Shown here: positions 1 through 30,485 of the stretch, piece after piece
Position numbering within the stretch: the first letter of the stretch is position 1
How the letters are laid out: every line of letters starts with the position of its first letter
Source: Escherichia phage 55
Reading direction: 5' to 3' (one strand)
Sequence record: OQ599310
DNA: 64,000 nt
Position numbers and translations under genes: made by a program
Notes under the pieces: model-generated
What the model was told of the DNA's origin: nothing
The model's input: the letters and a program-made list of their open reading frames with translations, nothing else
Databases searched by the model: none

Positions 1-402
1 AGTATGTACTTGAACACCGGGCATTATTCTCACGGTGATGCAGGATTCATTGCGCCTAATGATGTGTTGATTCATATTAGTCGTTCTGGTAAAACTGAAG
101 AAATGATAGGCGTGGCTAAGCATCTTAAAATGATTCGACCGAACGTCAAACAGATTCTGTTGCATTGTAACCCAGACATTCCACAAGAAAATGAAGCCCT
201 TTTTGATTACTCTTTCTGTACAGGCATCGCGGTAGAGGTTGATGAGAATTCTCTGGCTCCGACCATGTCCACTACATTGTTGTTAGCGCTTATCGATACG
301 TTTGCTATCAACCTTTCGTCTGAACGTGGATTTACCTCTAATGACTTCCTTAAGTTCCATCCAGGCGGTGCACTAGGTGCCATGTTACGAGGCGAGCAAT
401 GA
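1..402 (+). CDS. SIS-domain sugar-phosphate isomerase, KpsF/KdsD-like (arabinose-5-phosphate isomerase family); 5' end lies outside the window
   Basis: Translation aligns to the C-terminal half of the KdsD SIS domain (HGD.G, ISRSG, APT.STT, HPGGALG motifs); no CBS domains follow; the Met at 4 is internal to the alignment so the gene starts upstream. Confidence 0.7.
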   Translation, partial: SMYLNTGHYSHGDAGFIAPNDVLIHISRSGKTEEMIGVAKHLKMIRPNVKQILLHCNPDIPQENEALFDYSFCTGIAVEVDENSLAPTMSTTLLLALIDTFAINLSSERGFTSNDFLKFHPGGALGAMLRGEQ

Positions 403-542
403 AAGCAATAACAATAGGACTTTTACTATTGATGCTTGCCATGACTATCTACTGGAGCTTAACGGCTCCAGTAATGATTCCAACACTTGTAATTGGATGG
501 ATTATGATTGGTCTACAGGCAAAGTATGAATGCTTTAACTAG
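399..542 (+). CDS. small hydrophobic protein (47 aa, two predicted TM helices)
   Basis: ATG overlaps the stop of the upstream gene (ATGA); continuous ORF with strongly hydrophobic translation; below the ORF-track length cutoff. Confidence 0.3.
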   Translation: MKAITIGLLLLMLAMTIYWSLTAPVMIPTLVIGWIMIGLQAKYECFN

Positions 543-555
543 AATAGTGTACAAT
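531..555 (+). promoter_or_regulatory. candidate MotA-dependent middle promoter (MotA box TGCTTTA, then TACAAT -10 about 12 bp downstream)
   Basis: TGCTTTA at 531-537 and TACAAT at 550-555 upstream of the 584 ORF. Confidence 0.3.
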
Positions 556-583
556 ACACCTACTTACCAATGAGGACTTCAAC

Positions 584-2269
584 ATGAAAAAAGCTGTTAT
601 TCTTGGTGCTGGATTAGCAACTCGTTTATATCCAATTACTCACCATATTCCTAAGGTGCTTGTTAACTATAAACAAGACACTATTCTGAGCAATTTGTAT
701 ACAATTTATTCTGACCTTGGCGCAGATGAAATTATTGTAGTAGTTCATTCAAAATTTGCTGAAACTGTTCGAGCTTATTGTGAGCAAGAAGGGTTCAATG
801 TGACTATTCGTACAGTTGATGAAGCGTATGGATCTGCTTATGCTCTTGCTAAATTACACAAAGATTTAGACGGCCATAATGTAATTGTTAACTGGTGTGA
901 TATTATTCCTGATTTTGGTTCATGGTCTTGGAATGTCAACGCAATCTATGTTAAGGGTGATGAATGTCGATATAATTTCGACGGTGAAAATATCACTAAC
1001 GTAGGTTCAACAGGCGGTAATGTTGTAGGAATTTATCAGTTCAAAGACTGGGAATTCTATATGGGTTCTACCGATGAGGAAATTCATGAATACTGCAAAG
1101 GACGTGATTTCGTAGAATTCCTTTACAGCGGCGCATTCAATAAATCAGAGCTTATGAATATAATTGATTTAGGTGATATGCCTAAACTTGAAAAAGCTCA
1201 TGAAGTTCGTGAACTTAATCGTAGTTTTAATGCAGTTGAAATTGGTGAAGAAACTGTAACTAAATTCGCATTAACCGAACAGGGACGAGCTCTTCAGAAA
1301 GATGAGATTTCATGGTATTTGAAAGTGAAATCAGATTCAGTTCCTCAGTTAGTTTCTGTTAATGAAAACAATTTTGAAATGGAACGTATTAAAGGTAAGC
1401 CGGCATTTGAATATATTAAATCCAAATCAAGTCTTGCTCGTCCACAAATTGTTGATGCAATTTTAGATGCACTGAAATTCAGCACAGACACGTATTTTGT
1501 AAGTCCTGAAACTGTTCGTCGTGATTTCACTAAAGAATTCTATACGAAAGTTATTGATCGTTGTGAAAGCATTCAACCATTGATTGATTCATTTGGTAAA
1601 ATCACACATGTGAACTACACTAAGATTGGACGTCTGAAGCCAATGTTGAAACAAGCTTTAGAACATCTTATTCGTTATCATAACCGTTCTCAGGGACAGT
1701 ACTCTGTTATTCATGGTGACCCGAACTTCAGTAATACTATGATTACTGATAACGGCGAAGTCAAGTTTATCGACCCTCGTGGATATTTTGGCGAAACCAA
1801 GATTTACGGGCCAAAATTGTATGACGAAGCTAAAGTGCTTTATGCTGTTTCAGGTTATGATGAATTCAATGCTAATCCGACCTGGGGACAGTTTACTATT
1901 GATGAAACAACTTGTAATGTGACTATTAACATCAATCCATTAATTTACAAATATGGAAAGATGAGTTCGTTTAACGAGTATCATCATTTGGCGGTGGCAA
2001 TTATCTGGATTGCATTAGGTGGTTATTTCAAGAATAATCCACTTAAAGCGGTAGCCGCATATTATAAAGGTATGGAACTTCTGACTAAGCAATTACGTAA
2101 CATGGGCCGTGTACTTCAAGACGGCTCTATTAGTTATGACGTAGCAGAACCTGTAACGGCTACTCTGATTACAAAAAATCCTGGTAAATGGGTACTAACT
2201 GATAAAGAAACTGGTGTTTCCTATCGTCCAATCGGTGGCGATATCACTCACCAATGGGAACGAATCTAA
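584..2269 (+). CDS. bifunctional sugar-1-phosphate nucleotidyltransferase (N-terminal, RmlA/GalU-like) fused to APH/NahK-like anomeric sugar kinase (C-terminal)
   Basis: N-terminus ILGAGLATRLYPIT..PKVLV matches the G-x-G-T-R-L-Y-P-I-T nucleotidyltransferase signature; C-terminal region has HGDPNFSN catalytic loop and FIDPRG typical of aminoglycoside-phosphotransferase-fold kinases; GAGGA RBS upstream. Confidence 0.65.
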   Translation: MKKAVILGAGLATRLYPITHHIPKVLVNYKQDTILSNLYTIYSDLGADEIIVVVHSKFAETVRAYCEQEGFNVTIRTVDEAYGSAYALAKLHKDLDGHNVIVNWCDIIPDFGSWSWNVNAIYVKGDECRYNFDGENITNVGSTGGNVVGIYQFKDWEFYMGSTDEEIHEYCKGRDFVEFLYSGAFNKSELMNIIDLGDMPKLEKAHEVRELNRSFNAVEIGEETVTKFALTEQGRALQKDEISWYLKVKSDSVPQLVSVNENNFEMERIKGKPAFEYIKSKSSLARPQIVDAILDALKFSTDTYFVSPETVRRDFTKEFYTKVIDRCESIQPLIDSFGKITHVNYTKIGRLKPMLKQALEHLIRYHNRSQGQYSVIHGDPNFSNTMITDNGEVKFIDPRGYFGETKIYGPKLYDEAKVLYAVSGYDEFNANPTWGQFTIDETTCNVTININPLIYKYGKMSSFNEYHHLAVAIIWIALGGYFKNNPLKAVAAYYKGMELLTKQLRNMGRVLQDGSISYDVAEPVTATLITKNPGKWVLTDKETGVSYRPIGGDITHQWERI

Positions 2270-2655
2270 TGCACCGTGTAGAAAACATGCTTAATCTTTG
2301 TTTTGATGTCGATGATTGTATAACAGAGTGGAATAACAATCGTGATTACGTGAACTTCAAACCAGACGTCGAAATGGTGTCTGCCATTAATGCCTTGTAT
2401 GATGCAGGGCATACCATAACGCTTTACACTGCTCGCGGTATGAAGTCAGTAGGTCCCGGTCGTATAGCAATTGACATTCTCCCGAGTCTGATTCAGAACT
2501 TGGAAAACATTGGCTTGAAGTACCATAATTTGCTAACACATAAACCAGTATATGATTGGATTATCGACGACAAAGCTATGCGTCCTGACGAATTCAAAGC
2601 TCTTATGAATAAAGGCGAATTCGAAACATTTAAATCATATAAACCGAATCTATAA
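2254..2655 (+). CDS. HAD-superfamily phosphatase (small, resembling the phosphatase domain of polynucleotide kinase)
   Basis: Motifs CFDVDDCIT (motif I), AGHTITLYTARG, YDWIIDDKA parallel the pseT phosphatase-domain motifs [21 protein letters not shown] in the same window; alternative start at 2269 (TAATG overlap). Confidence 0.55.
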   Translation: MGTNLMHRVENMLNLCFDVDDCITEWNNNRDYVNFKPDVEMVSAINALYDAGHTITLYTARGMKSVGPGRIAIDILPSLIQNLENIGLKYHNLLTHKPVYDWIIDDKAMRPDEFKALMNKGEFETFKSYKPNL

Positions 2656-2709
2656 TAATTTAAGTAAGACCTGCAAAAACCATCGCATCAATTAACGCGA
2701 GATGCAAAA

Positions 2710-3870
2710 ATGAACACTTTTAAAATCGGAACGAATTTTGATTTAGCTCTTCTTGATAAAATCGTAGAGCTCAATAAAACCTATCCTAATAGCTTGATAA
2801 ACGAAGTATATGGCTCTACAAGAGAAATGGCTTTTGTAGCAGCCAGACCTGATTTTAGGCTTCCTGACGTTGACAAAAAGATGTTAGAAGACTACGTTAA
2901 ACGTTGTAACGAATTAGGTATTTGCTTTAACTATACACTCAACACGATAAATCCTGGTTCAAAAAGAGAACTAGTTGAGTGGAAGAAGAAAGCTATTCAG
3001 GATTATGTTCAGTATCTTTGGTCAATAGGCGTATGGCGTATTACTATCGCTAACCCTGTTGTTATGGAAATTGTTCGTGAAGTCAATAAAGATATTGAGA
3101 TTGAAGTTTCAACAATTCTACATGTCGATGCTGTAACTCAAATCAAATACTTGCACGACCAATATAACATCAAAAAAGTCTGTTGCGGAATTCATAAGAA
3201 CCGTTCAGTTTCTTTCCTGAAGCGTGCAGCAGAGTTTTGCAATAAGAACAATATAATATTTGAAGTTCTTGTAAATGAGTTCTGTTCTAATGCTGGTAAA
3301 GGGTATACAACACATTGTAGTTATCGTGACTCTTGCTATATTTTCCATAGTACTGATGTTACCGCTGATGATGCTAAATCCTTAAATGGATATCCAATGC
3401 AGCACTGTATTAAAGCTCGTGATACAGATCCATTTAACTGGTTGAGAACTCGTTTTGTTCGTCCTCAAGATTTGAAACTTTATAATGATATTGGTATCAC
3501 TCAATTCAAAGTTTCAGGACGTACAGGTAGCACAGACTACATTTTGAAAGTTCTTGAAGCATACGCTTCTGAAAAGTTTGAAGGTAATTTGTTAGAACTG
3601 TGGAAGCCTTTAGAGACTATTTTCACTCTTGAAAACGAAACTGAGTTTTCACATACAGTAAATATTGAAACCTCTTTGTTAGATGGCTTTTTAGAAAAAA
3701 GGTGGTTCAGACATCCAGATTTTGATTGTGCTAATGAAATCTGTGGGTCAACGTGTACATATTGTGAAAGGTATTATAAACGTCAATTATCTAAAAACGG
3801 GTTAGCAGAAAACTCCATATCTATTATTGATATAACTAGCTCTGATGACGCTTTGAGATACCCGGAATGA
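2710..3870 (+). CDS. Cys-rich protein with divergent peptidase-U32-like motifs (family that includes Fe-S dependent hydroxylases RlhA/TrhP/UbiU-V); function unknown
   Basis: Segments FNYTLNTI, EVLVNEFCSNAGKGYTTHCSYRDSC and FKVSGRTGSTDY resemble the U32 core and GR motifs; assignment is from memory of the family signature and is tentative. Confidence 0.4.
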   Translation: MNTFKIGTNFDLALLDKIVELNKTYPNSLINEVYGSTREMAFVAARPDFRLPDVDKKMLEDYVKRCNELGICFNYTLNTINPGSKRELVEWKKKAIQDYVQYLWSIGVWRITIANPVVMEIVREVNKDIEIEVSTILHVDAVTQIKYLHDQYNIKKVCCGIHKNRSVSFLKRAAEFCNKNNIIFEVLVNEFCSNAGKGYTTHCSYRDSCYIFHSTDVTADDAKSLNGYPMQHCIKARDTDPFNWLRTRFVRPQDLKLYNDIGITQFKVSGRTGSTDYILKVLEAYASEKFEGNLLELWKPLETIFTLENETEFSHTVNIETSLLDGFLEKRWFRHPDFDCANEICGSTCTYCERYYKRQLSKNGLAENSISIIDITSSDDALRYPE

Positions 3871-4106
3871 TTTCTAGAAAAAGTTTTAATTATAAACTTA
3901 ACGAAGAGATTTTGACTATGAAACTGAACACTAACGAACAAATTCTTAAAAAGGCCCTTATGGGCCTGTTTGAAACCAAAGCGGCTAAAGTGATTAAAGA
4001 ACCTGTTCAATTGGAATACTACACTGATGCATTCCTTCATAGTGTTCTTGGAAGTATAGATTCTGAAGCTTTACGTTATATCAACATTGCCAAGAAATTC
4101 AAATAA
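3867..4106 (+). CDS. hypothetical protein (79 aa)
   Basis: ORF with ATGA start overlap to upstream gene. Confidence 0.4.
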   Translation: MISRKSFNYKLNEEILTMKLNTNEQILKKALMGLFETKAAKVIKEPVQLEYYTDAFLHSVLGSIDSEALRYINIAKKFK

Positions 4107-4148
4107 GCTTTATGAATTGAGTATATAATAAATTGTATTGAGGTAAAC

Positions 4149-4865
4149 ATGGGAAAACATAACACAATGAAATATATCAAAGCCGCAGATTTTCAAACCG
4201 CATTTAAAGCAGTCAATCGTGAAATTTTAGAAAACCCGGAATTCGTAACCGATTCTCGTATTGGACGTTGTAATGAAATTGGGTCTATGACAGTAGTTGT
4301 TGACAATCCATCATCATTCAAAATGACCGACCCACGTATTAACCGCATCTCTTATGAATATGCCGAAGACTTCTGGAAGTTTATGATTTCTGGTGGTACT
4401 GATGCAGAAGAAGCGTTTAAGGCATATCCTAATGTCGCTAAATTTATTTCTAAACCTAAATCAGACGCTTTGCCTGCAAACTTCAACACTTTCTACGGTC
4501 CTCGCATTGCGGCCCAATTACCAGCTCTTCTAAAAGAACTTAAAGAGAAACCTAACTCTCGAAGAGTTGTGTTCCAAATTCTAGAAAGTTCTGATCAGGC
4601 TTTGCTTGATTCGGACGAAACACTTGAATATCCATGTACTGACTCAGTAACTTATTATATTCGTGATGGTAAGCTTTATACCCACTGCCATATGCGTTCT
4701 CAGAACTGTGCTGTTGTTATGCAGTTGGATTTTTATCTCCAAGGAAAATTACTTCATTATATCGCTAACGAATGCGGTGTAGAAGTTGGTGATTATACTC
4801 ATACCATGGTAAGTGCCCATGTGTTTGAACGTGATTTTGATTATGTTAAAGGATTCCTTGACTAA
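4149..4865 (+). CDS. 42: dCMP hydroxymethylase (thymidylate-synthase-fold), gene 42
   Basis: TS-family core YPCTD...GKLYTHCHMRSQN with Cys nucleophile; size 238 aa; sits upstream of uvsX as gene 42 does in T4. Confidence 0.7.
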   Translation: MGKHNTMKYIKAADFQTAFKAVNREILENPEFVTDSRIGRCNEIGSMTVVVDNPSSFKMTDPRINRISYEYAEDFWKFMISGGTDAEEAFKAYPNVAKFISKPKSDALPANFNTFYGPRIAAQLPALLKELKEKPNSRRVVFQILESSDQALLDSDETLEYPCTDSVTYYIRDGKLYTHCHMRSQNCAVVMQLDFYLQGKLLHYIANECGVEVGDYTHTMVSAHVFERDFDYVKGFLD

Positions 4866-5764
4866 TGGCTATTTTCCGCGTACCAATCTTGAGTATGCGG
4901 TCTTATGAAACTGGACAGTATGCTATCCTTAAGGATGGCAACTTCCAACTTCATTTGCACCGTGCTAATCCAGGTGATGTGATTACATATCCACGTAATG
5001 CATCTGATATTAAAGAATGCGAACGTCTTTTCCCAGAATTTAAGTTTGTTCCATTATGGTATAAAGATAACGCGTATAACACTCGTAAATATTTCTGGTC
5101 TGAAAATGAATTTGTGGTTGATTCATTAATTGCTTATTATGATTGTGATTTTCTAATCACAGATATCACCGGATATGACGGCGCTTTTGATGTTGAATTC
5201 AATTTCAATATCACTGCAGACCCTAATAAACCACGTTTTTATATTGACGAATTCTTAAAAACCGATATGTTGTCGGTTAATCGTTCACTTCAAACTACTG
5301 TGTTGAATGAACGTCAAAAAGAAGTGCTGGTTAACGCAGGTGCAGATGGTAATAAGATTATCGTAACGCAGAAAGTTATACGTCCTTCCATCATGCAGCG
5401 TCTTGTAGGTGATTTGGCCCCTATTCATCTAGATGGTATTTTTCATCCATTTCGAATTAGTGACCCATGCTATCGTTTTGAACAAGTGGTTGAATGTGCA
5501 ATTCAATTAGGTCAACCGCTTTATATAACCGATCCAAATAATAGTTTCGACAGAAATAAGTATCCTGAAGAAGCGCTGATTCGAATTTTTAAACCAACTA
5601 AAACTGAGTACTATCAAATTCTTAAAGGACGACCGAAGATTCAATATTTCGAAAATCCTGAAGAAGTATTCCATCCAGGTCTTGGCGAGTTCATCTACTT
5701 TAATGCTTTAATTTCTTCGCCGTATAATATACCTAAATACGAAGATGTCGTAATCGAGGAATAA
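4865..5764 (+). CDS. hypothetical protein occupying the locus of T4 beta-glucosyltransferase; candidate DNA-modifying transferase
   Basis: 299-aa ORF, TAATG overlap with gene 42; no similarity I can recognise to T4 beta-gt. Confidence 0.45.
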   Translation: MAIFRVPILSMRSYETGQYAILKDGNFQLHLHRANPGDVITYPRNASDIKECERLFPEFKFVPLWYKDNAYNTRKYFWSENEFVVDSLIAYYDCDFLITDITGYDGAFDVEFNFNITADPNKPRFYIDEFLKTDMLSVNRSLQTTVLNERQKEVLVNAGADGNKIIVTQKVIRPSIMQRLVGDLAPIHLDGIFHPFRISDPCYRFEQVVECAIQLGQPLYITDPNNSFDRNKYPEEALIRIFKPTKTEYYQILKGRPKIQYFENPEEVFHPGLGEFIYFNALISSPYNIPKYEDVVIEE

Positions 5765-5765
5765 A

Positions 5766-6314
5766 ATGGCTAAAATTATTTTAGTAGATGGCCCAGATAA
5801 TGCCGGTAAAACAACTTTCATTAATGACATAATGGAAATTAGTGAAAGATACGTAAAGATTGATTTCCCTAAACGAACAGTTGATGGACGTTTCGATGTT
5901 AAGTCTCGAAATGAAGTTGGTTGTTTCGAAACGATGTTGAATTATTTAGACCCTACTAAGATTTATCTGTTAGACCGTGGATATATTAGTAACTGGGTTT
6001 ATGGACGTATTCGACAAGATGCGGACTCTGTTCTTGATGTTTATGAGCAGGATTATGTTCGTCTTTGCCAAAACCATGATGTGTTCACAATTATTTTAAC
6101 ACGTAACGAAATGACTGAAAGTTTTGAAGACGACCTTATTACTTTGTCTTCATTCGGTTTTAATACAGTCATTTCACATTTTGAAGAGTTTGCAATTCAT
6201 AACAAAATCCAAACGTATCAATTACTTAATCATGATGGTGCTAACAAAGTTATAGGATTTAATGCAAGCGAACGTAATGGTTTGATTATAGAAATCATCA
6301 AATGGGCTCGTTAA
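5766..6314 (+). CDS. thymidylate-kinase-like P-loop nucleotide kinase
   Basis: P-loop VDGPDNAGKTT and LDRGYISNWVYG resembling the TMK DR(Y/H)..S..AYQ motif. Confidence 0.5.
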   Translation: MAKIILVDGPDNAGKTTFINDIMEISERYVKIDFPKRTVDGRFDVKSRNEVGCFETMLNYLDPTKIYLLDRGYISNWVYGRIRQDADSVLDVYEQDYVRLCQNHDVFTIILTRNEMTESFEDDLITLSSFGFNTVISHFEEFAIHNKIQTYQLLNHDGANKVIGFNASERNGLIIEIIKWAR

Positions 6315-6332
6315 GAGCCATTTAAAGTTTTA

Positions 6333-6359
6333 AATGCTGTATAACCCTTAGTATATAAT
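6333..6359 (+). promoter_or_regulatory. candidate middle (MotA-type) promoter upstream of uvsX
   Basis: TGCTGTA (near MotA box) followed about 12 bp later by TATATAAT. Confidence 0.3.
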
Positions 6360-6412
6360 CATCTTATCTTTTAAACATGAGTAAAATATAATGACGCCTA
6401 TGGAAAAATACA

Positions 6413-7585
6413 ATGTCTGATTTAAAATCTCGTCTGATTAAAGCTTCTACTTCTAAAATGACTGCAGACTTGACTAAGTCTAAGCTGTTTAATAATCGTG
6501 ATGAAGTCCCTACTCGTATTCCGATGTTGAATATCGCACTAGGTGGTGCTCTGAATGCAGGATTGCAATCAGGCTTGACTATTTTTGCTGCACCTTCTAA
6601 ACATTTTAAAACATTGTTTGGACTAACTATGGTTGCAGCGTATATGAAGAAATATAAAGATGCAATCTGTTTGTTCTATGACTCAGAATTTGGTGCTTCA
6701 GAATCTTATTTTCGTTCAATGGGTGTTGATTTAGACCGTGTAGTTCATACACCAATTCAGTCCGTCGAACAACTTAAAGTTGATATGACTAATCAGCTTG
6801 ACGCGATTGAACGCGGTGATAAAGTTATTATCTTTATCGATTCAATCGGTAATACTGCATCTAAGAAAGAAACCGAAGATGCATTGAACGAGAAAGTCGT
6901 AGGTGATATGTCTCGTGCTAAGGCACTTAAATCTCTGTTCCGTATTGTGACCCCGTATCTGACTATTAAAGATATTCCATGTGTTGCAATTAACCATACA
7001 GCAATGGAAATCGGCGGACTATATCCTAAAGAGATTATGGGTGGTGGTACAGGTATTCTTTACTCTGCTAACACTGTATTCTTTATCTCTAAACGTCAGG
7101 TTAAAGAAGGTACAGAATTGACCGGTTATGACTTCACGTTGAAAGCAGAAAAATCTCGTACAGTTAAAGAAAAATCTACTTTCCCAATCACAGTTAATTT
7201 TGATGGTGGTATCGACCCATTCAGTGGCTTGTTAGAAATGGCAACTGAAATTGGATTTGTTGTTAAGCCTAAAGCCGGGTGGTACGCTCGCGAATTCCTT
7301 GACGAAGAAACAGGCGAAATGATTCGTGAAGAGAAATCGTGGCGTGCTAAAGCTACTGATTGTGTAGAATTCTGGGGACCTTTGTTTAAACACAAACCTT
7401 TCAGAGATGCAATTGAAACTAAATATAAACTAGGTGCTATCTCTTCTATTAAAGAAGTTGATGACGCTGTTAACGACCTTATTAATTGCAAAGCAACAAC
7501 TAAAGTTCCTGTTAAAGCTTCTGATGCTCCGTCTGCAGCAGATATTGAAAACGACCTTGACGAAATGGAAGATTTCGATGAATAA
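6413..7585 (+). CDS. uvsX: UvsX RecA-like recombinase
   Basis: 390 aa; near-identity over long stretches with T4 UvsX (MSDLKSRLIKASTSK..., FVVKPK.GWYAREFLDEETGEMIREEKSWRAK). Confidence 0.95.
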   Translation: MSDLKSRLIKASTSKMTADLTKSKLFNNRDEVPTRIPMLNIALGGALNAGLQSGLTIFAAPSKHFKTLFGLTMVAAYMKKYKDAICLFYDSEFGASESYFRSMGVDLDRVVHTPIQSVEQLKVDMTNQLDAIERGDKVIIFIDSIGNTASKKETEDALNEKVVGDMSRAKALKSLFRIVTPYLTIKDIPCVAINHTAMEIGGLYPKEIMGGGTGILYSANTVFFISKRQVKEGTELTGYDFTLKAEKSRTVKEKSTFPITVNFDGGIDPFSGLLEMATEIGFVVKPKAGWYAREFLDEETGEMIREEKSWRAKATDCVEFWGPLFKHKPFRDAIETKYKLGAISSIKEVDDAVNDLINCKATTKVPVKASDAPSAADIENDLDEMEDFDE

Positions 7586-7919
7586 TCTCGATGATTTAAA
7601 TCTAGAAATCGTTGATGAATCCCCTTCTTCGGAAGGGGAAGACATTCGCAAAGAACGAGTGTTTAATGAATCTCTTAAAATTATCCGTTCAGCAATGGAA
7701 AATGTCATTCAAGAGATTCTGATTACACTTGAAGATGGTTCTCATCATATAGTCTATATTACAAAACTAGACTGGGTTGATGGTAAAATCGTAATGGACT
7801 TTGCAGTTCTTGACCAGGACAGAAAAGCAGAACTTGCACCGCATGTTGAAAAATGTGTTACAATGCAAGTACAACAAGCTTTTAATGAACGGGCCAAGAA
7901 AAAATTTAAATTCTTTTAA
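7578..7919 (+). CDS. 40: gp40 head vertex assembly chaperone
   Basis: 114-aa ORF starting at ATG overlapping uvsX stop (ATGAATAA); position between uvsX and 41 as in T4. Confidence 0.55.
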   Translation: MNNLDDLNLEIVDESPSSEGEDIRKERVFNESLKIIRSAMENVIQEILITLEDGSHHIVYITKLDWVDGKIVMDFAVLDQDRKAELAPHVEKCVTMQVQQAFNERAKKKFKFF

Positions 7920-7928
7920 GGAGTTATC

Positions 7929-9371
7929 GTGGTAGAAATTATTTTGTCTCATCTAGTATATGACCAGGCTTATTTTTCTAAGGTCTGGCCTTATATGGAT
8001 TCTGATTACTTTGAGCGTGGACCGGCAAAAAACGTCTTTAAAATTATAAAGAGCCACGTTAACGAATATAATGCAATGCCATCTATCAATGCATTAAAGG
8101 TGGCTTTAGATAACAGTTCTTTAACTGAAGCTGAATATAAAGGAACTTCAGACCTAATTGAAAAATTGGCTGATACTCCTGAAGACCATGAATGGCTGGT
8201 TAAAGAAACTGAGAAATATGTCCAGCAAAAAGCGATGTATAATGCTACATCCAAAATCATTGAGATTCAGTCTAATGCTGAACTACCTCCAGAACAACGT
8301 AACAAGAAAATGCCTGACGTAGGAGCTATTCCTGATATTATGCGTCAAGCACTTTCAATTTCGTTCGATAGTTATGTTGGACATGACTGGATGGAAGACT
8401 ACGAAGCACGCTGGCTTTCTTATCTAAATAAAGCACGTAAGGTCCCGTTCAAATTAAACATTTTGAATAAAATCACCAAAGGCGGTGCAGAAACAGGTAC
8501 ACTAAACGTTTTAATGGCTGGTGTTAACGTTGGTAAATCTTTAGGCCTTTGTTCACTTGCTGCAGATTATCTTCAAACAGGACATAATGTTCTTTATATT
8601 TCCATGGAAATGGCTGAAGAAGTTTGTGCTAAGCGTATAGATGCAAATATGCTTGACGTATCGCTCGATGATATCGATGATGGTAACGTATCTTATGCTG
8701 AATATAAAGCCAAGATGGAAAAATGGCGTTCAAAATCCACATTAGGACGTTTAGTAGTTAAACAGTATCCTACCGGCGGAGCTAATGCTAATACATTCCG
8801 TGCATTGCTTAATGAATTGAAACTCAAGAAGAACTTTGTGCCATCTGTAATCATGGTTGATTACTTAGGTATTTGTGGGTCTTGTCGTATCAGAGTTTAC
8901 ACTGAAAATAGCTACACATTAGTTAAAGCTATCGCAGAAGAACTTCGTGCATTAGCAGTAGAATCTGAAACAGTTCTATGGACTGCAGCTCAAGTAGGAC
9001 GTGCAGCATGGGATGCTTCGGACATGAACATGAGTGATATCGCAGAATCAGCAGGTTTACCAGCAACGGCAGATTTCATGTTGGCCGTAATTGAAACCGA
9101 AGAACTTGCACAAGCTGAACAACAACTTATCAAACAAATCAAATCACGATATGGCGATAAGAATAAGTGGAACAAGTTCTTGATGGGTGTACGTAAAGGC
9201 AACCAGAAATGGATTGAGATTGAGCAAGAAGGCGTGAACACCCCTAACACCGTAAATGAAAACGCAGGTGCTCAGATGCGTCAGGCAGAGGTGAATCGTA
9301 CGGAACGCGTAGGTAAAGCCAAAGCAACACGTGCTGACCTAGATAGCTTAGCCAATGAGTTAAAATTTTAA
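7929..9371 (+). CDS. 41: gp41 replicative DnaB-like helicase
   Basis: N-terminus MVEIILSHL..DQAYFSKVWPYMDS matches T4 gp41; Walker A GVNVGKS. Confidence 0.95.
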   Translation: MVEIILSHLVYDQAYFSKVWPYMDSDYFERGPAKNVFKIIKSHVNEYNAMPSINALKVALDNSSLTEAEYKGTSDLIEKLADTPEDHEWLVKETEKYVQQKAMYNATSKIIEIQSNAELPPEQRNKKMPDVGAIPDIMRQALSISFDSYVGHDWMEDYEARWLSYLNKARKVPFKLNILNKITKGGAETGTLNVLMAGVNVGKSLGLCSLAADYLQTGHNVLYISMEMAEEVCAKRIDANMLDVSLDDIDDGNVSYAEYKAKMEKWRSKSTLGRLVVKQYPTGGANANTFRALLNELKLKKNFVPSVIMVDYLGICGSCRIRVYTENSYTLVKAIAEELRALAVESETVLWTAAQVGRAAWDASDMNMSDIAESAGLPATADFMLAVIETEELAQAEQQLIKQIKSRYGDKNKWNKFLMGVRKGNQKWIEIEQEGVNTPNTVNENAGAQMRQAEVNRTERVGKAKATRADLDSLANELKF

Positions 9372-26865: not shown

Positions 26866-27966
26866 ATGAAAGTTATGTTTATCCCATCTCGTGCAGTCCC
26901 ATTTAATCCTGACCGTGTACAAGGTGGTCTTGAAGCAGTACATTTAAATGTGTTGAAATATTTAGTTTCTATCGGTGCCGATATTGATTATATTGGTTTT
27001 GATAATGACACATTTGGTGATTGGAAGGTTAATCATCATCCTGTTGGTCATCTGACTAAATTCAGTCTAGGTATGAGTTATACTATGGCTCGTAAGATTG
27101 TTGAACTAGCCGGCATCCATGAATACGATTTTGTTGTTACTATGGAACCGACTAAACTAACCGTTCAGGCAATTAAAGACGCAGGTCTCTCTAAAGTTCA
27201 TAAGAATTTTATGGCAACACCATTTGAACCGGTATCTCGTGGCATTGTTCAAATTTGGGACCAGACTATTCAAATTCATAAGAACGGTGGTAAGAGTTAT
27301 GCTCCTACTAAAGCCTTCCGTGAATTTGAACGTAAATATTGTTATATGACTTCAGGTCTGACTGACAAAATTGATTATGATTATTGGCGAGCAAATCCGT
27401 TGTTTGAAGCCGAAGATTATCCGGTTATTTGTTTGAATGAGAAACCTGAAGTTCTTCCGGCGACTGATCTGATTATTAGTGCACAACGTTATGACACTAA
27501 AATGCGTCGTACTGATGTTGCTCTTGAAGCGATTAAAGCACTAGGCGAAAATGGTGCAGGATACTGTCCTAGTAAATGGGCACCACCAGCTAAATATCCT
27601 GTTATTATTGATGCTCCACACAGTGAAATTATGGAACGTCTTAAAACAGCTAAAGCACTTATTAATACGTGTCCTGACACAGGTACGGTAGAGAATAGTT
27701 CTATTGAAGCCATCTCTAAAGGTGTCCCTGTAATCCAGCTAGTTTTTAAGGATTATCCTCATGCGACATTTGAATACGACCCAGATACTGTGCGTGTAGA
27801 AATTGATTCCTCTACTCCTAAGAAAGAAGTAGTTGCGCTTTACACAAAAGCTGTATTAGAATTCACTGACACATACGAAGCTCGAGTTAAACGTGCTGAA
27901 GCAGTATGGAAGAAGTATAACCGAGATGCGGTTGTTGCGATGTGGGATAAAATCTTCACAGCGTAA
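26866..27966 (+). CDS. candidate GT-B fold glycosyltransferase (possible DNA hmC glycosyltransferase)
   Basis: N-terminus MKVMFIPSRA...GG and C-terminal GTVENSSIEAISKGVPVIQ resemble GT4-type motifs; lies between gene 39 and rIIA. Confidence 0.5.
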   Translation: MKVMFIPSRAVPFNPDRVQGGLEAVHLNVLKYLVSIGADIDYIGFDNDTFGDWKVNHHPVGHLTKFSLGMSYTMARKIVELAGIHEYDFVVTMEPTKLTVQAIKDAGLSKVHKNFMATPFEPVSRGIVQIWDQTIQIHKNGGKSYAPTKAFREFERKYCYMTSGLTDKIDYDYWRANPLFEAEDYPVICLNEKPEVLPATDLIISAQRYDTKMRRTDVALEAIKALGENGAGYCPSKWAPPAKYPVIIDAPHSEIMERLKTAKALINTCPDTGTVENSSIEAISKGVPVIQLVFKDYPHATFEYDPDTVRVEIDSSTPKKEVVALYTKAVLEFTDTYEARVKRAEAVWKKYNRDAVVAMWDKIFTA

Positions 27967-28271: not shown

Positions 28272-30485
28272 ATGATTATTGAAACGGCTAAAGAAACGAT
28301 TATTGGTTCAGGCGGTAAGAGCACAGCATTCACTATTCAAGGCAATAGCAAAGTTTATAAGATTTTGTCTAATGACCTTTATACAAACAAAGAATTGGCT
28401 TGTGTACGTGAATTAATTACAAACTGTATCGATGGACAAATTCTTAACGGTTGCACTGATAAGTTTATTGTTCAGGCTCCAGGTCGTTTAGACCCACGTT
28501 TTGTAGTTCGTGATTTTGGACCTGGTATGAGCGATTTCACCATTCGAGGTAATGACGAAGAGCCAGGAATTTATAACTCATATTTTGCTTCAACTAAAAC
28601 ATCGAGTAACGATTTCATTGGTGGATTCGGACTCGGCTCTAAAGCTCCATTAGCATATACCGATACGTTTAACCTTACGTCTTATCACAACGGTGAAGTT
28701 CGTGGTTACGTAATCTACCAAGATGACACAGGTCCACAAATTAAGCCGACCTTTGTAGATAAGATGGGTCCTGATGACCGTACGGGTGTAGAAGTAGTTG
28801 TACCGGTTAACCCGGAAGATTTTGAAAAGTTTGCATCCGAAATTGCATATGTTATGCGTCCTCTAGGTGATATTGCAGAAGTTCGTGGTGTTAAAGATAT
28901 TAAATACTTCCCAGAATTTGATGATGTATATTTGGCCAAGGAAGCTCCATGGGGTGAACGTGGTAATATCATGGCTGTTTATGGTGGTATTGTATATCCA
29001 ATCGGAAGTGTTATTAAAGAACAAACATGGATGATGACGCGATGCACTACAGCTTATATTAAATTCCCTATGGGTGAACTAGACGTAGCTCCGTCTCGTG
29101 AAGCATTGTCATTTGATAAACGTACAGTAGCAAATATCCATAAACGCGTTGCAGAAATCGATGCTAAATTGTTCGCTGAAGATTCTAAGAAATGGATTGA
29201 TTGTAAATACCCACGTCATGTGTTCCGTGAAATTGATTCTCTTGGCTATACCGCTCGTAAATACATGGAAAAGGCCGGGTCTAATATTGAATCACTGAAA
29301 TACTCTAAAGAACAACTAACTTATTCTGAGTTGTACAAACGTTTTAAAATGGGGCCTGAGTGGTGTAATCTTGGCGTCGTATATGATATCGTTGAATCCC
29401 CTCGTCTTCGTCGTATTCGTGAAAGTGGTAGCTCAACGGCAACCATTTCAATTAACAGTCTGATTGGCATTAACATTAAAAATGTTGAAATTGTTATTGA
29501 CGACGTTAAGGGACGCGTTCCATTAATGCGAGCTCTTAATTCAATTGAAATGTCTAAAGACGAGGTTAAATTAACTGGTAAAGTTCCACGCGGTTTTGGT
29601 AAAAGTGTACTATTCGTTGACCCTACAGACGAAGATGCAATGAAACTTCTGGAACGCCTTAAAGTTATCTTTGATGGCGACAACATTAACATGTACAAGA
29701 CTTCAGAGCTTTTACAAATCGTTAAGCCATGGATTGAAGTCAGGAAACGAACTAATGAGCCTCGTCCTAAATCCCCAAGTGCTCATCGGTTCTTTAAGAA
29801 TGAAAACGATGTTTGGGTATCAGAAGATCTCTTTATTCCAGCGAGTGAAGCAGATGAAATCCAAGGTTATGCTGTAATTCGTAATCGTTCTAATGCTGAA
29901 TGTCTTGACGCAGATAAAGGTTGGTTGAACTATGACTCCAATTTCTTGACCCGTATTGCTGATTTGTCAGGTATTAAAGAGTTCACTGTAGTTCGTCCAC
30001 AGATTGCTAAGAAAGTTCGTAAACTTGGTGAAGTAGAATGCTTGTTCGAAAAATCAATTAATGACTATATTACGCTAATCGATAAAGTGGATTATGATGA
30101 GTATGTATCACCAAGTCGTAGAGCACAGCCTTATTTGAATCATATTACTCGTAACGAAGAGCTTAACTTCCTTAGTAAGTATTTTAGCTCTAAGAACAAA
30201 GAAATCAGTAAAGACTTTGCAAAACTCTCAACAGTAAATAATCGTTGGGGATGGAATCGATTCGCAGGTGCTACTAATACAGACCTGAATAAGAAGTTAG
30301 AATTGTGTGCTAAAATTTTCGATAAGCTTAAAGATAATGCTTACGATAATGATGATAAAATGGTTATTGAATTCGAAACCAATTATCATATTGTGTCAGA
30401 CTACATGGGACGACGTGGTACTCTTTCTAAAGAACAAGTCGCTCAAATCGTTAAATTCATGAAGGCCGTGGAAGCGGCCAAATAA
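28272..30485 (+). CDS. rIIA: rIIA protein
   Basis: 737 aa; N-terminal GHKL-like ATPase motifs (ELITNCIDG, DFGPGMS, GGFGLGSK); followed by rIIB. Confidence 0.85.
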   Translation: MIIETAKETIIGSGGKSTAFTIQGNSKVYKILSNDLYTNKELACVRELITNCIDGQILNGCTDKFIVQAPGRLDPRFVVRDFGPGMSDFTIRGNDEEPGIYNSYFASTKTSSNDFIGGFGLGSKAPLAYTDTFNLTSYHNGEVRGYVIYQDDTGPQIKPTFVDKMGPDDRTGVEVVVPVNPEDFEKFASEIAYVMRPLGDIAEVRGVKDIKYFPEFDDVYLAKEAPWGERGNIMAVYGGIVYPIGSVIKEQTWMMTRCTTAYIKFPMGELDVAPSREALSFDKRTVANIHKRVAEIDAKLFAEDSKKWIDCKYPRHVFREIDSLGYTARKYMEKAGSNIESLKYSKEQLTYSELYKRFKMGPEWCNLGVVYDIVESPRLRRIRESGSSTATISINSLIGINIKNVEIVIDDVKGRVPLMRALNSIEMSKDEVKLTGKVPRGFGKSVLFVDPTDEDAMKLLERLKVIFDGDNINMYKTSELLQIVKPWIEVRKRTNEPRPKSPSAHRFFKNENDVWVSEDLFIPASEADEIQGYAVIRNRSNAECLDADKGWLNYDSNFLTRIADLSGIKEFTVVRPQIAKKVRKLGEVECLFEKSINDYITLIDKVDYDEYVSPSRRAQPYLNHITRNEELNFLSKYFSSKNKEISKDFAKLSTVNNRWGWNRFAGATNTDLNKKLELCAKIFDKLKDNAYDNDDKMVIEFETNYHIVSDYMGRRGTLSKEQVAQIVKFMKAVEAAK

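Follow-up and report, generated by a model that had tools for sequence, protein, structure and literature searches.

Arabinosyl-5-hydroxycytosine DNA shields Mosigvirus and many T4-like phages, therapeutic candidates included, from type II restriction, the Brig1 glycosylase and some CRISPR-Cas systems (PMC13216743, PMC13326640). Lee et al. (bioRxiv 2025, NAR 2026; PMC13326640) have proposed that gp46:47 of phage RB69 and gp79 of phage DLP3 act as 'arabinosyltransferase 1', and the Durham Collection paper restates this role as a hypothesis (PMC13390438). The assignment was thus published in 2025-2026 and is not new here. The present analysis concerns the counterpart of these proteins in a 64,000-nucleotide stretch of Escherichia phage 55 (sequence record OQ599310; hereafter, the window), in which an open reading frame (ORF) of 299 codons lies in the slot that T4 gives to b-gt, the beta-glucosyltransferase gene. 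The syntenic homolog in Shewanella phage Thanatos, TH1_063, is 47.5% identical to the 299-residue protein, and DLP3 gp79 is 45.9% identical.

With modest confidence, we favor the reading that the 299-residue protein carries out O-glycosylation dependent on UDP-arabinofuranose (UDP-Araf), by which the 5-hydroxyl group of 5-hydroxycytosine (5hoC) in replicated DNA would receive its first D-arabinofuranose, the one nearest the base. The analysis shows the fold of the model, the linkage of the genes, their distribution among phages and what the neighboring genes encode; we infer the donor, the acceptor, the order of addition and whether the acceptor is used before or after replication. The first-sugar enzyme is the key step of the arabinosylation pathway, and confirmation of its activity and acceptor would complete that pathway, make it possible to engineer phages that are mono-modified or lack the modification, and set database annotations right. 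The remaining interest lies in the choice between DNA and nucleotide as acceptor, and in the coupling of glycosyltransferase (GT) and kinase documented below.

The 299-residue protein and its predicted fold

A reading of the locus made from sequence only had described a 299-codon ORF in a TAATG overlap with the gene upstream, and this description of the ORF was confirmed. The ATG start codon shares base 4865 with the TAA of the 238-residue thymidylate-synthase-like ORF (gacTAATGgct). On the other side, an ORF of 182 codons begins 1 nucleotide past the stop (gaggaaTAAaATG), and the GAGGA Shine-Dalgarno sequence of this ORF is found within the 3' end of the 299-codon gene. The three genes are thus tightly packed. 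A scan of positions 1..8000 for promoters and terminators gave counts equal to those expected from shuffled sequence and was thus uninformative.

The 900-bp gene is 98-99% identical across 153 Mosigvirus records (RB69 and relatives), and the window is Mosigvirus, RB69-like. The protein shows 100% identity to its counterpart in E. coli O157 typing phage 3 and 99.3% to RB69 gp46:47. It matches phrog_3891, a PHROG without known function, over residues 1-298 (E 3e-156). Among 5.8 billion proteins 138 relatives were found, none of which (0/138) is named for a function or contains a Pfam domain, and the family profile matched only 229 clusters among 1.84 billion cluster representatives. An alignment of 44 homologs, which are 36-75% identical to the 299-residue protein, contains 32 invariant columns. 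The gene is real, under constraint, and confined to phages. In the RB69 reference (NC_004928), pairwise alignment reveals one extra T at L001:7544, near position 5408 of the window (GTAGTGTGATT vs GTAGGTGATT), which divides the gene into two short annotated ORFs, ORF047c and ORF046c; the gene is intact in the window and in about 150 relatives. Lee et al. regard the extra T as a sequencing error (PMC13326640).

The sequence-only reading had held the protein to be unrelated in sequence to T4 beta-glucosyltransferase and had proposed remote-homology searches and structure prediction. The lack of sequence similarity was borne out (BLASTP best E 3.7). Profile methods came out empty, and the predicted structure is that of a GT-B protein. 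No Pfam match was found at E<=0.1, Glycos_transf_1 and Glyco_trans_4 included. NCBIfam yielded no match, and neither did the PDB, searched with phmmer and with the family profile. When the family was compared by hhalign with the 366-residue GT of the window, DLP3 gp76 and gp77, and T4 alpha-glucosyltransferase, the probability was 0.1%.

An AlphaFold2 model was built from the 44-sequence alignment, with a mean predicted local distance difference test score (pLDDT) of 94.8, a predicted template modeling score (pTM) of 0.89, and every residue at 70 or above. In the model, residues 1-181 make up one beta/alpha/beta block and residues 192-295 a second; they form Rossmann-like domains on either side of a central cleft, as in GT-B enzymes. 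The predicted fold is a compact, minimal GT-B. In the fold comparison, the model scored 17.7 with sucrose-phosphate synthase 6kih, 16.8 with BshA, 16.3 with HepE, 15.7 with PimA, 14.6 with the glycosyltransferase 9iqz of phage HY126, and 13.2 with T4 alpha-glucosyltransferase 1y6f. A relative from Serratia phage Muldoon in BFVD has a TM score of 0.75 and 18% identity.

Enzymes of the GT-B class bind a nucleoside diphosphate (NDP)-sugar with the help of two elements: in the C-terminal domain, a basic residue comes after strand 1, and the helix that follows strand 4 starts with a His/Glu-Gly motif. In the family examined here R197 (in FPFRISD), K246 and H270-P271-G272 are invariant, and position 275 is acidic (E275). 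According to the alignment and the model, FPFR197isD comes after strand 1 of the C-terminal domain, and H270-P-G..E275 lies at the N-terminus of the helix that follows strand 4. Hence R197, K246 and H270-P-G..E275 appear to occupy the loop and helix positions that would hold the diphosphate and ribose of an NDP-sugar. Net charge was also considered as a sign of DNA binding and discarded as uninformative: the 299-residue protein has an isoelectric point (pI) of 5.1, equal to the family median, and that of T4 beta-glucosyltransferase is 9.05, but the DNA-acting T4 alpha-glucosyltransferase (pI 6.1) and DLP3 gp77 (5.7) are also acidic.

Synthase, kinase and the number of sugars

The gene upstream had been taken for gene 42, which in T4 encodes a dCMP hydroxymethylase, and this part of the sequence-only reading must be corrected. 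The 238-residue protein is near-identical to the protein of the HY126 crystal structures 9iqc/9ir2 (E 2.4e-161), and at the position of D169 in E. coli ThyA it carries N (MRSQN), where T4 gp42, like E. coli ThyA, has D. An N at this position is the published diagnostic of 5-hydroxy-dCMP synthases (PMC13326640). Judged by these sequence features, the enzyme is a 5-hydroxy-dCMP synthase, a gene-42 homolog by family and not by function. Because of the identity of this neighbor, we take the acceptor base to be 5hoC and the sugar arabinose, instead of 5-hydroxymethylcytosine (hmC) and glucose. Genes of the Flavodoxin_2 type (NAD(P)H:flavin oxidoreductase) were seen directly upstream of an N169-type ThyA homolog on one metagenomic contig (L006:6739-7293) and a few genes away from another (L005:1-523), in agreement with the reported flavin dependence of 5-hydroxy-dCMP synthase; no gene of this type was noticed in the module of the window.

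The claim that the 299-codon gene precisely replaces b-gt holds for position, as the T4 order in NC_000866 is 42, b-gt, segA, uvsX, 40, 41. It does not hold for extent, since the interval from the ThyA-like gene to uvsX is taken up by two genes. The slot is made of a GT and a nucleotide kinase inside an arabinosylation module of about 6 kb. The triad of N169-type synthase, GT and phrog_761 kinase is kept down to 36% GT identity. It is found in Thanatos (TH1_062/063/064), in DLP3 (gp80/79/78), and on the unrelated metagenomic contigs L005 and L006, which are 122 and 356 kb long and encode GTs of 36-38% identity. The GT gene lies immediately 3' of the N169-type ThyA homolog in RB69, Thanatos, DLP3 and L006, and within one gene downstream of it in L005. 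The kinase gene adjoins the GT gene in RB69, Thanatos, DLP3, L005, L006 and L009.

In two independent clusters, P0235 (551 residues) and P0256 (599 residues), GT and kinase are joined in one polypeptide that matches both phrog_3891 and phrog_761. The contigs that encode the fusions are only 1.8-3.6 kb long, so little of their neighborhood was recovered. Other long members of the family (P0222, P0237 and P0260) may have the same layout. Two more, P0140 (536 residues) and P0151 (553 residues), carry an N-terminal extension of about 185 residues with a DxDG start (FDFDGIF). The extension has a weak Pfam match to HAD hydrolases (E 0.004), on which we do not rely, and shows no similarity to the HAD gene of the window; its sequence suggests a fusion of sugar-phosphate phosphatase and GT. 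In L009, the phrog_761 kinase gene overlaps the start of a fusion gene of the latter type.

The family of the 299-residue protein was found in 348 phage records, which include phages of Escherichia, Shigella, Klebsiella, Serratia, Enterobacter, Proteus, Yersinia, Acinetobacter and Shewanella. A GT4-like gene, represented in the window by a 366-residue GT, occurs in 211 records and has a narrower host range: one copy in Escherichia and Shigella Mosigvirus, two copies in Acinetobacter phages, and a single Tegunavirus record. No GT4-like homolog was found in Thanatos, yet a member of the 299-residue family is present. Published sugar counts can be set beside these gene contents: Thanatos DNA has one pentose per base (PMC13326640), RB69 and Bas46/47 have two arabinoses (PMC12923530, PMC13326640), DLP3 has three (PMC13326640), and the Acinetobacter phages with two GT4-like genes are tri-arabinosyl (PMC13326640, PMC12923530). 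The number of sugars per base is thus one plus the number of GT4-like genes, as one would expect if the 299-residue protein adds the first sugar.

Serratia phage PS2 (NC_024121) encodes a distant homolog of 308 residues (L012:5001-5927) between a D169-type gp42 and beta-alpha-gt/beta-gt. Nearly all of the invariant motifs (MRS, KDGN, FPFRISD, TDPN, HPG) are lost in this protein, which, from its sequence, seems to be a relic that has decayed or taken on another role in a phage with glucosylated hmC.

Acceptor stage and rival readings

The sequence-only reading had suggested an alternative DNA-modifying transferase. The predicted GT-B fold, the gene context and the published proposals for RB69 gp46:47 (PMC13326640) sustain the idea of a transferase; the acceptor and the sugar need to be specified as 5hoC and arabinose, and catalysis is putative. 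In the route that we favor, the upstream ThyA-like enzyme would produce 5-hydroxy-dCMP, which the downstream kinase and host enzymes would convert to the triphosphate for incorporation by the polymerase. The upstream genes for the isomerase, the kinase/pyrophosphorylase and the phosphatase would provide UDP-Araf. The 299-residue GT would then add arabinose 1, most probably once the base is part of phage DNA, and arabinose 2 would be added by the GT4-like enzyme.

A number of observations weigh against this route. DLP3 gp79 alone, given 5hoC-DNA and either UDP-Araf or UDP-arabinopyranose (UDP-Arap), produced no arabinosylation (PMC13326640). Indeed, each DLP3 GT is inactive singly on 5hoC-DNA, and a third arabinose is added onto RB69 DNA only when DLP3 gp76 and gp77 are present together (PMC13326640). 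The authors of that work cannot tell whether the mononucleotide or DNA is the acceptor of the first sugar (PMC13326640). In addition, purified TH1_063 is reported to have formed UDP-xylose from UTP and xylose-1-phosphate, as detected by liquid chromatography-tandem mass spectrometry (LC-MS/MS), while TH1_060 formed none; TH1_063 did not glycosylate DNA, dCMP or dCTP, acceptors that had no 5-OH group (PMC12838424). With He et al. (2026, Nat Chem Biol) and Mahler et al. (2025, Cell Host Microbe) excepted, direct activity is unreported in the literature searched. Lastly, no sequence or profile match ties the protein to any GT family, and its assignment as a GT stands on the predicted structure.

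The inactivity of gp79 on DNA leads to the question of whether the same chemistry might take place before replication, on free 5-hydroxy-dCMP or on the di- or triphosphate. The kinase would then handle a glycosylated nucleotide, and the polymerase would incorporate arabinosyl-dCTP. We consider this rather unlikely, as all characterized phage DNA glycosylations are, to our knowledge, post-replicative, which is established for the alpha- and beta-glucosyltransferases of T4. For the arabinoses after the first, DNA is the acceptor and UDP-Araf the donor, and the synthase expressed alone gives rise to 5hoC in E. coli plasmid DNA, so that a route with a DNA-level acceptor exists (PMC13326640). Furthermore, polymerases are impeded by nucleotides with bulky C5 sugars (bioRxiv 10.64898/2026.07.20.739590). 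What speaks for a free nucleotide, besides the gp79 result and the option left open by its authors, is the layout of the genes: the GT codons overlap or abut those of a synthase that works at the mononucleotide level and of a nucleotide kinase, an arrangement that persists to 36% identity and includes the natural fusions. Abutting genes can, however, become fused by mere loss of a stop codon, and channeling need not follow. RB69 also encodes a dNMP kinase of the T4 gene-1 type, RB69p159 (PMC13326640, Table 1), and the presence of an extra kinase beside it suggests an unusual substrate. A metabolon of synthase, GT and kinase can also be envisaged, in which the GT would act on 5-hydroxy-dCMP while coupled to the kinase (fused to it in some phages), and the glycosylated dCTP would be incorporated. 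We hold this arrangement to be unlikely; if true, it would account for the failure of the GT to act on 5hoC-DNA by itself, and a DNA base precursor would for the first time have been found to be glycosylated before replication.

The remaining alternatives deny that the protein transfers a sugar to the base. The reported formation of UDP-xylose by syntenic TH1_063 raises the possibility of a sugar-nucleotide-forming enzyme, a UDP-pentose pyrophosphorylase, which seems to us very unlikely. The predicted fold is GT-B and not the nucleotidyltransferase fold of sugar-1-phosphate uridylyltransferases, with its N-terminal G-x-G-x-x-T-R. The module already contains a canonical NTP_transferase domain in the 561-residue protein, whose homolog AfhE of HY126 is reported to make UDP-arabinose (PMC13326640). 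The TH1_063 assay used xylose instead of arabinofuranose, with a no-enzyme control only, and a role restricted to the donor would leave Thanatos without a transferase for its single sugar. Another kind of GT-B-fold enzyme, similar to NDP-sugar 2-epimerases, or a non-catalytic partner that activates a second enzyme, is highly improbable in our view. The best Foldseek matches by E-value are non-hydrolyzing UDP-N-acetylglucosamine (UDP-GlcNAc) 2-epimerases, which also have a GT-B fold; in the fold comparison, the first of these epimerases ranks 31 with a score of 13.1. Partner dependence does occur, as the joint activity of DLP3 gp76 and gp77 indicates (PMC13326640), and PS2 has kept a degenerate homolog devoid of the conserved motifs. 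Transfer of the first arabinose to 5hoC in replicated DNA is the reading that we carry forward.

The arabinosylation module and its likeness to known systems

The features of the window that bear on this reading are listed in the table.

Table. Genes of the arabinosylation module and other features of the window.
Coordinates	Strand	Feature	Match, counterpart or remark
4..402	+	Arabinose-5-phosphate isomerase, SIS domain, 3' part (RB69 gp55 type)	Pfam SIS; phrog_5670 positions 79-210/210; RB69 annotation
399..542	+	47-residue strongly hydrophobic ORF (MKAITIGLLLLMLAMTIYW...)	RB69ORF054c ('similar to T4 42-imm intercistronic region')
584..2269	+	561-residue bifunctional NTP-transferase and kinase (RB69 ORF53_52c / HY126 AfhE type)	phrog_4098
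2254..2655	+	133-residue HAD-type sugar-phosphate phosphatase (RB69 gp51 / AfhF type)	phrog_1238; assigned after PMC13326640
2710..3870	+	386-residue Peptidase_U32-family protein (RB69 gp50)	Pfam PF01136, E 7e-11; phrog_5757; weak UbiU match
3867..4106	+	79-residue conserved ORF (RB69ORF049c)	phrog_8601, E 2e-50; RB69 annotation
4149..4865	+	238-residue thymidylate-synthase-family enzyme, predicted 5-hydroxy-dCMP synthase (RB69 gp48 type)	Pfam Thymidylat_synt
4865..5764	+	299-residue protein of predicted GT fold, sequence orphan, putative first (base-proximal) arabinosyltransferase	Counterpart of RB69 gp46:47, DLP3 gp79, Thanatos TH1_063
5766..6314	+	182-residue P-loop thymidylate-kinase-like nucleotide kinase (RB69 gp45 type)	phrog_761, E 8e-45
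6413..7585		uvsX	Downstream of the 182-residue ORF
7929..9371		Gene 41	After uvsX
26866..27966	+	366-residue GT4-like glycosyltransferase (RB69 ORF003c type), proposed second arabinosyltransferase	
28272..30485		737-residue ORF	rIIA by position (PMC13390438)

In HY126 and RB69, UDP-Araf is reported to be made by the isomerase, the NTP-transferase/kinase and the phosphatase (PMC13326640). The isomerase gene is truncated by the start of the window. In the 561-residue protein, the Pfam NTP_transferase domain is N-terminal (LGAGLATRL), and matches to APH-like kinases are found in the C-terminal part. The 47-residue ORF, situated between the isomerase gene and that of the 561-residue protein, is possibly a small membrane protein, given its composition. 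The 79-residue ORF lies ahead of the synthase gene, shares bases with the stop of the U32 gene, and belongs to the module in RB69 as well.

Published work labels RB69 gp50 only as a 'sugar or heterocycle reductase'. Members of the U32 family include O2-independent hydroxylases: RlhA (5-hydroxycytidine in rRNA, ho5C), TrhP (5-hydroxyuridine in tRNA, ho5U) and UbiU/V. By analogy, the 386-residue protein could provide an anaerobic route to 5hoC, as a backup for the O2- and flavin-dependent synthase. A phrog_5757 gene is also found beside a metagenomic GT-kinase fusion (L008:2605-3552).

The 366-residue GT matches the HY126 glycosyltransferase structures 9iqz/9ir0 (E 7.8e-250) and is 99.7% identical to RB69ORF003c. 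Its gene lies between a topoisomerase gene and the 737-codon ORF, about 21 kb from the 299-codon gene.

Database annotation is behind the literature for three of these genes in the records listed. The 299-codon gene appears as 'hypothetical protein', and in IME341 and LC53 as 'RNA polymerase binding protein', an unrelated label. The synthase is annotated as 'thymidylate synthase' or 'dCMP hydroxymethylase'. The 366-residue GT is mostly 'hypothetical', with one record of a 'putative hmC-arabinosyltransferase'.

Compared with described systems, the 299-residue protein is essentially the same as RB69 gp46:47, DLP3 gp79 and TH1_063 (phrog_3891), with homology over the full length; the copy in the window is intact, while that of the RB69 reference is split. 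T4 beta-glucosyltransferase (b-gt, CAZy GT63) occupies the same slot, with a ThyA-family gene upstream and uvsX downstream. The T4 enzyme has an established GT-B fold, the class predicted for the 299-residue protein, and both are presumed to decorate the C5 substituent of cytosine. The acceptor differs: in T4 it is hmC, produced by the dCMP hydroxymethylase gp42, whereas the window has an N169-type 5-hydroxylase instead.

T4 alpha-glucosyltransferase (1y6f) and the retaining transferases of the GT4 type (sucrose-phosphate synthase 6kih, BshA 6n1x, MshA 3c4q, PimA 2gej) are structural neighbors of the model, but the C-terminal domain of the 299-residue protein is much shorter, with about 110 residues. 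The canonical E-x7-E of the GT4 type is absent from its family, in which no residue is conserved eight positions ahead of E275, and neither Glycos_transf_1 or Glyco_trans_4 matches nor profile-profile signals connect the two. The HY126 enzyme of 9iqz/9ir0, equivalent to RB69 ORF003c and to the 366-residue GT of the window, belongs to a family distinct from that of the 299-residue GT (BLASTP E 2.9), and its gene is accessory, confined to phages that carry two or three arabinoses per base.

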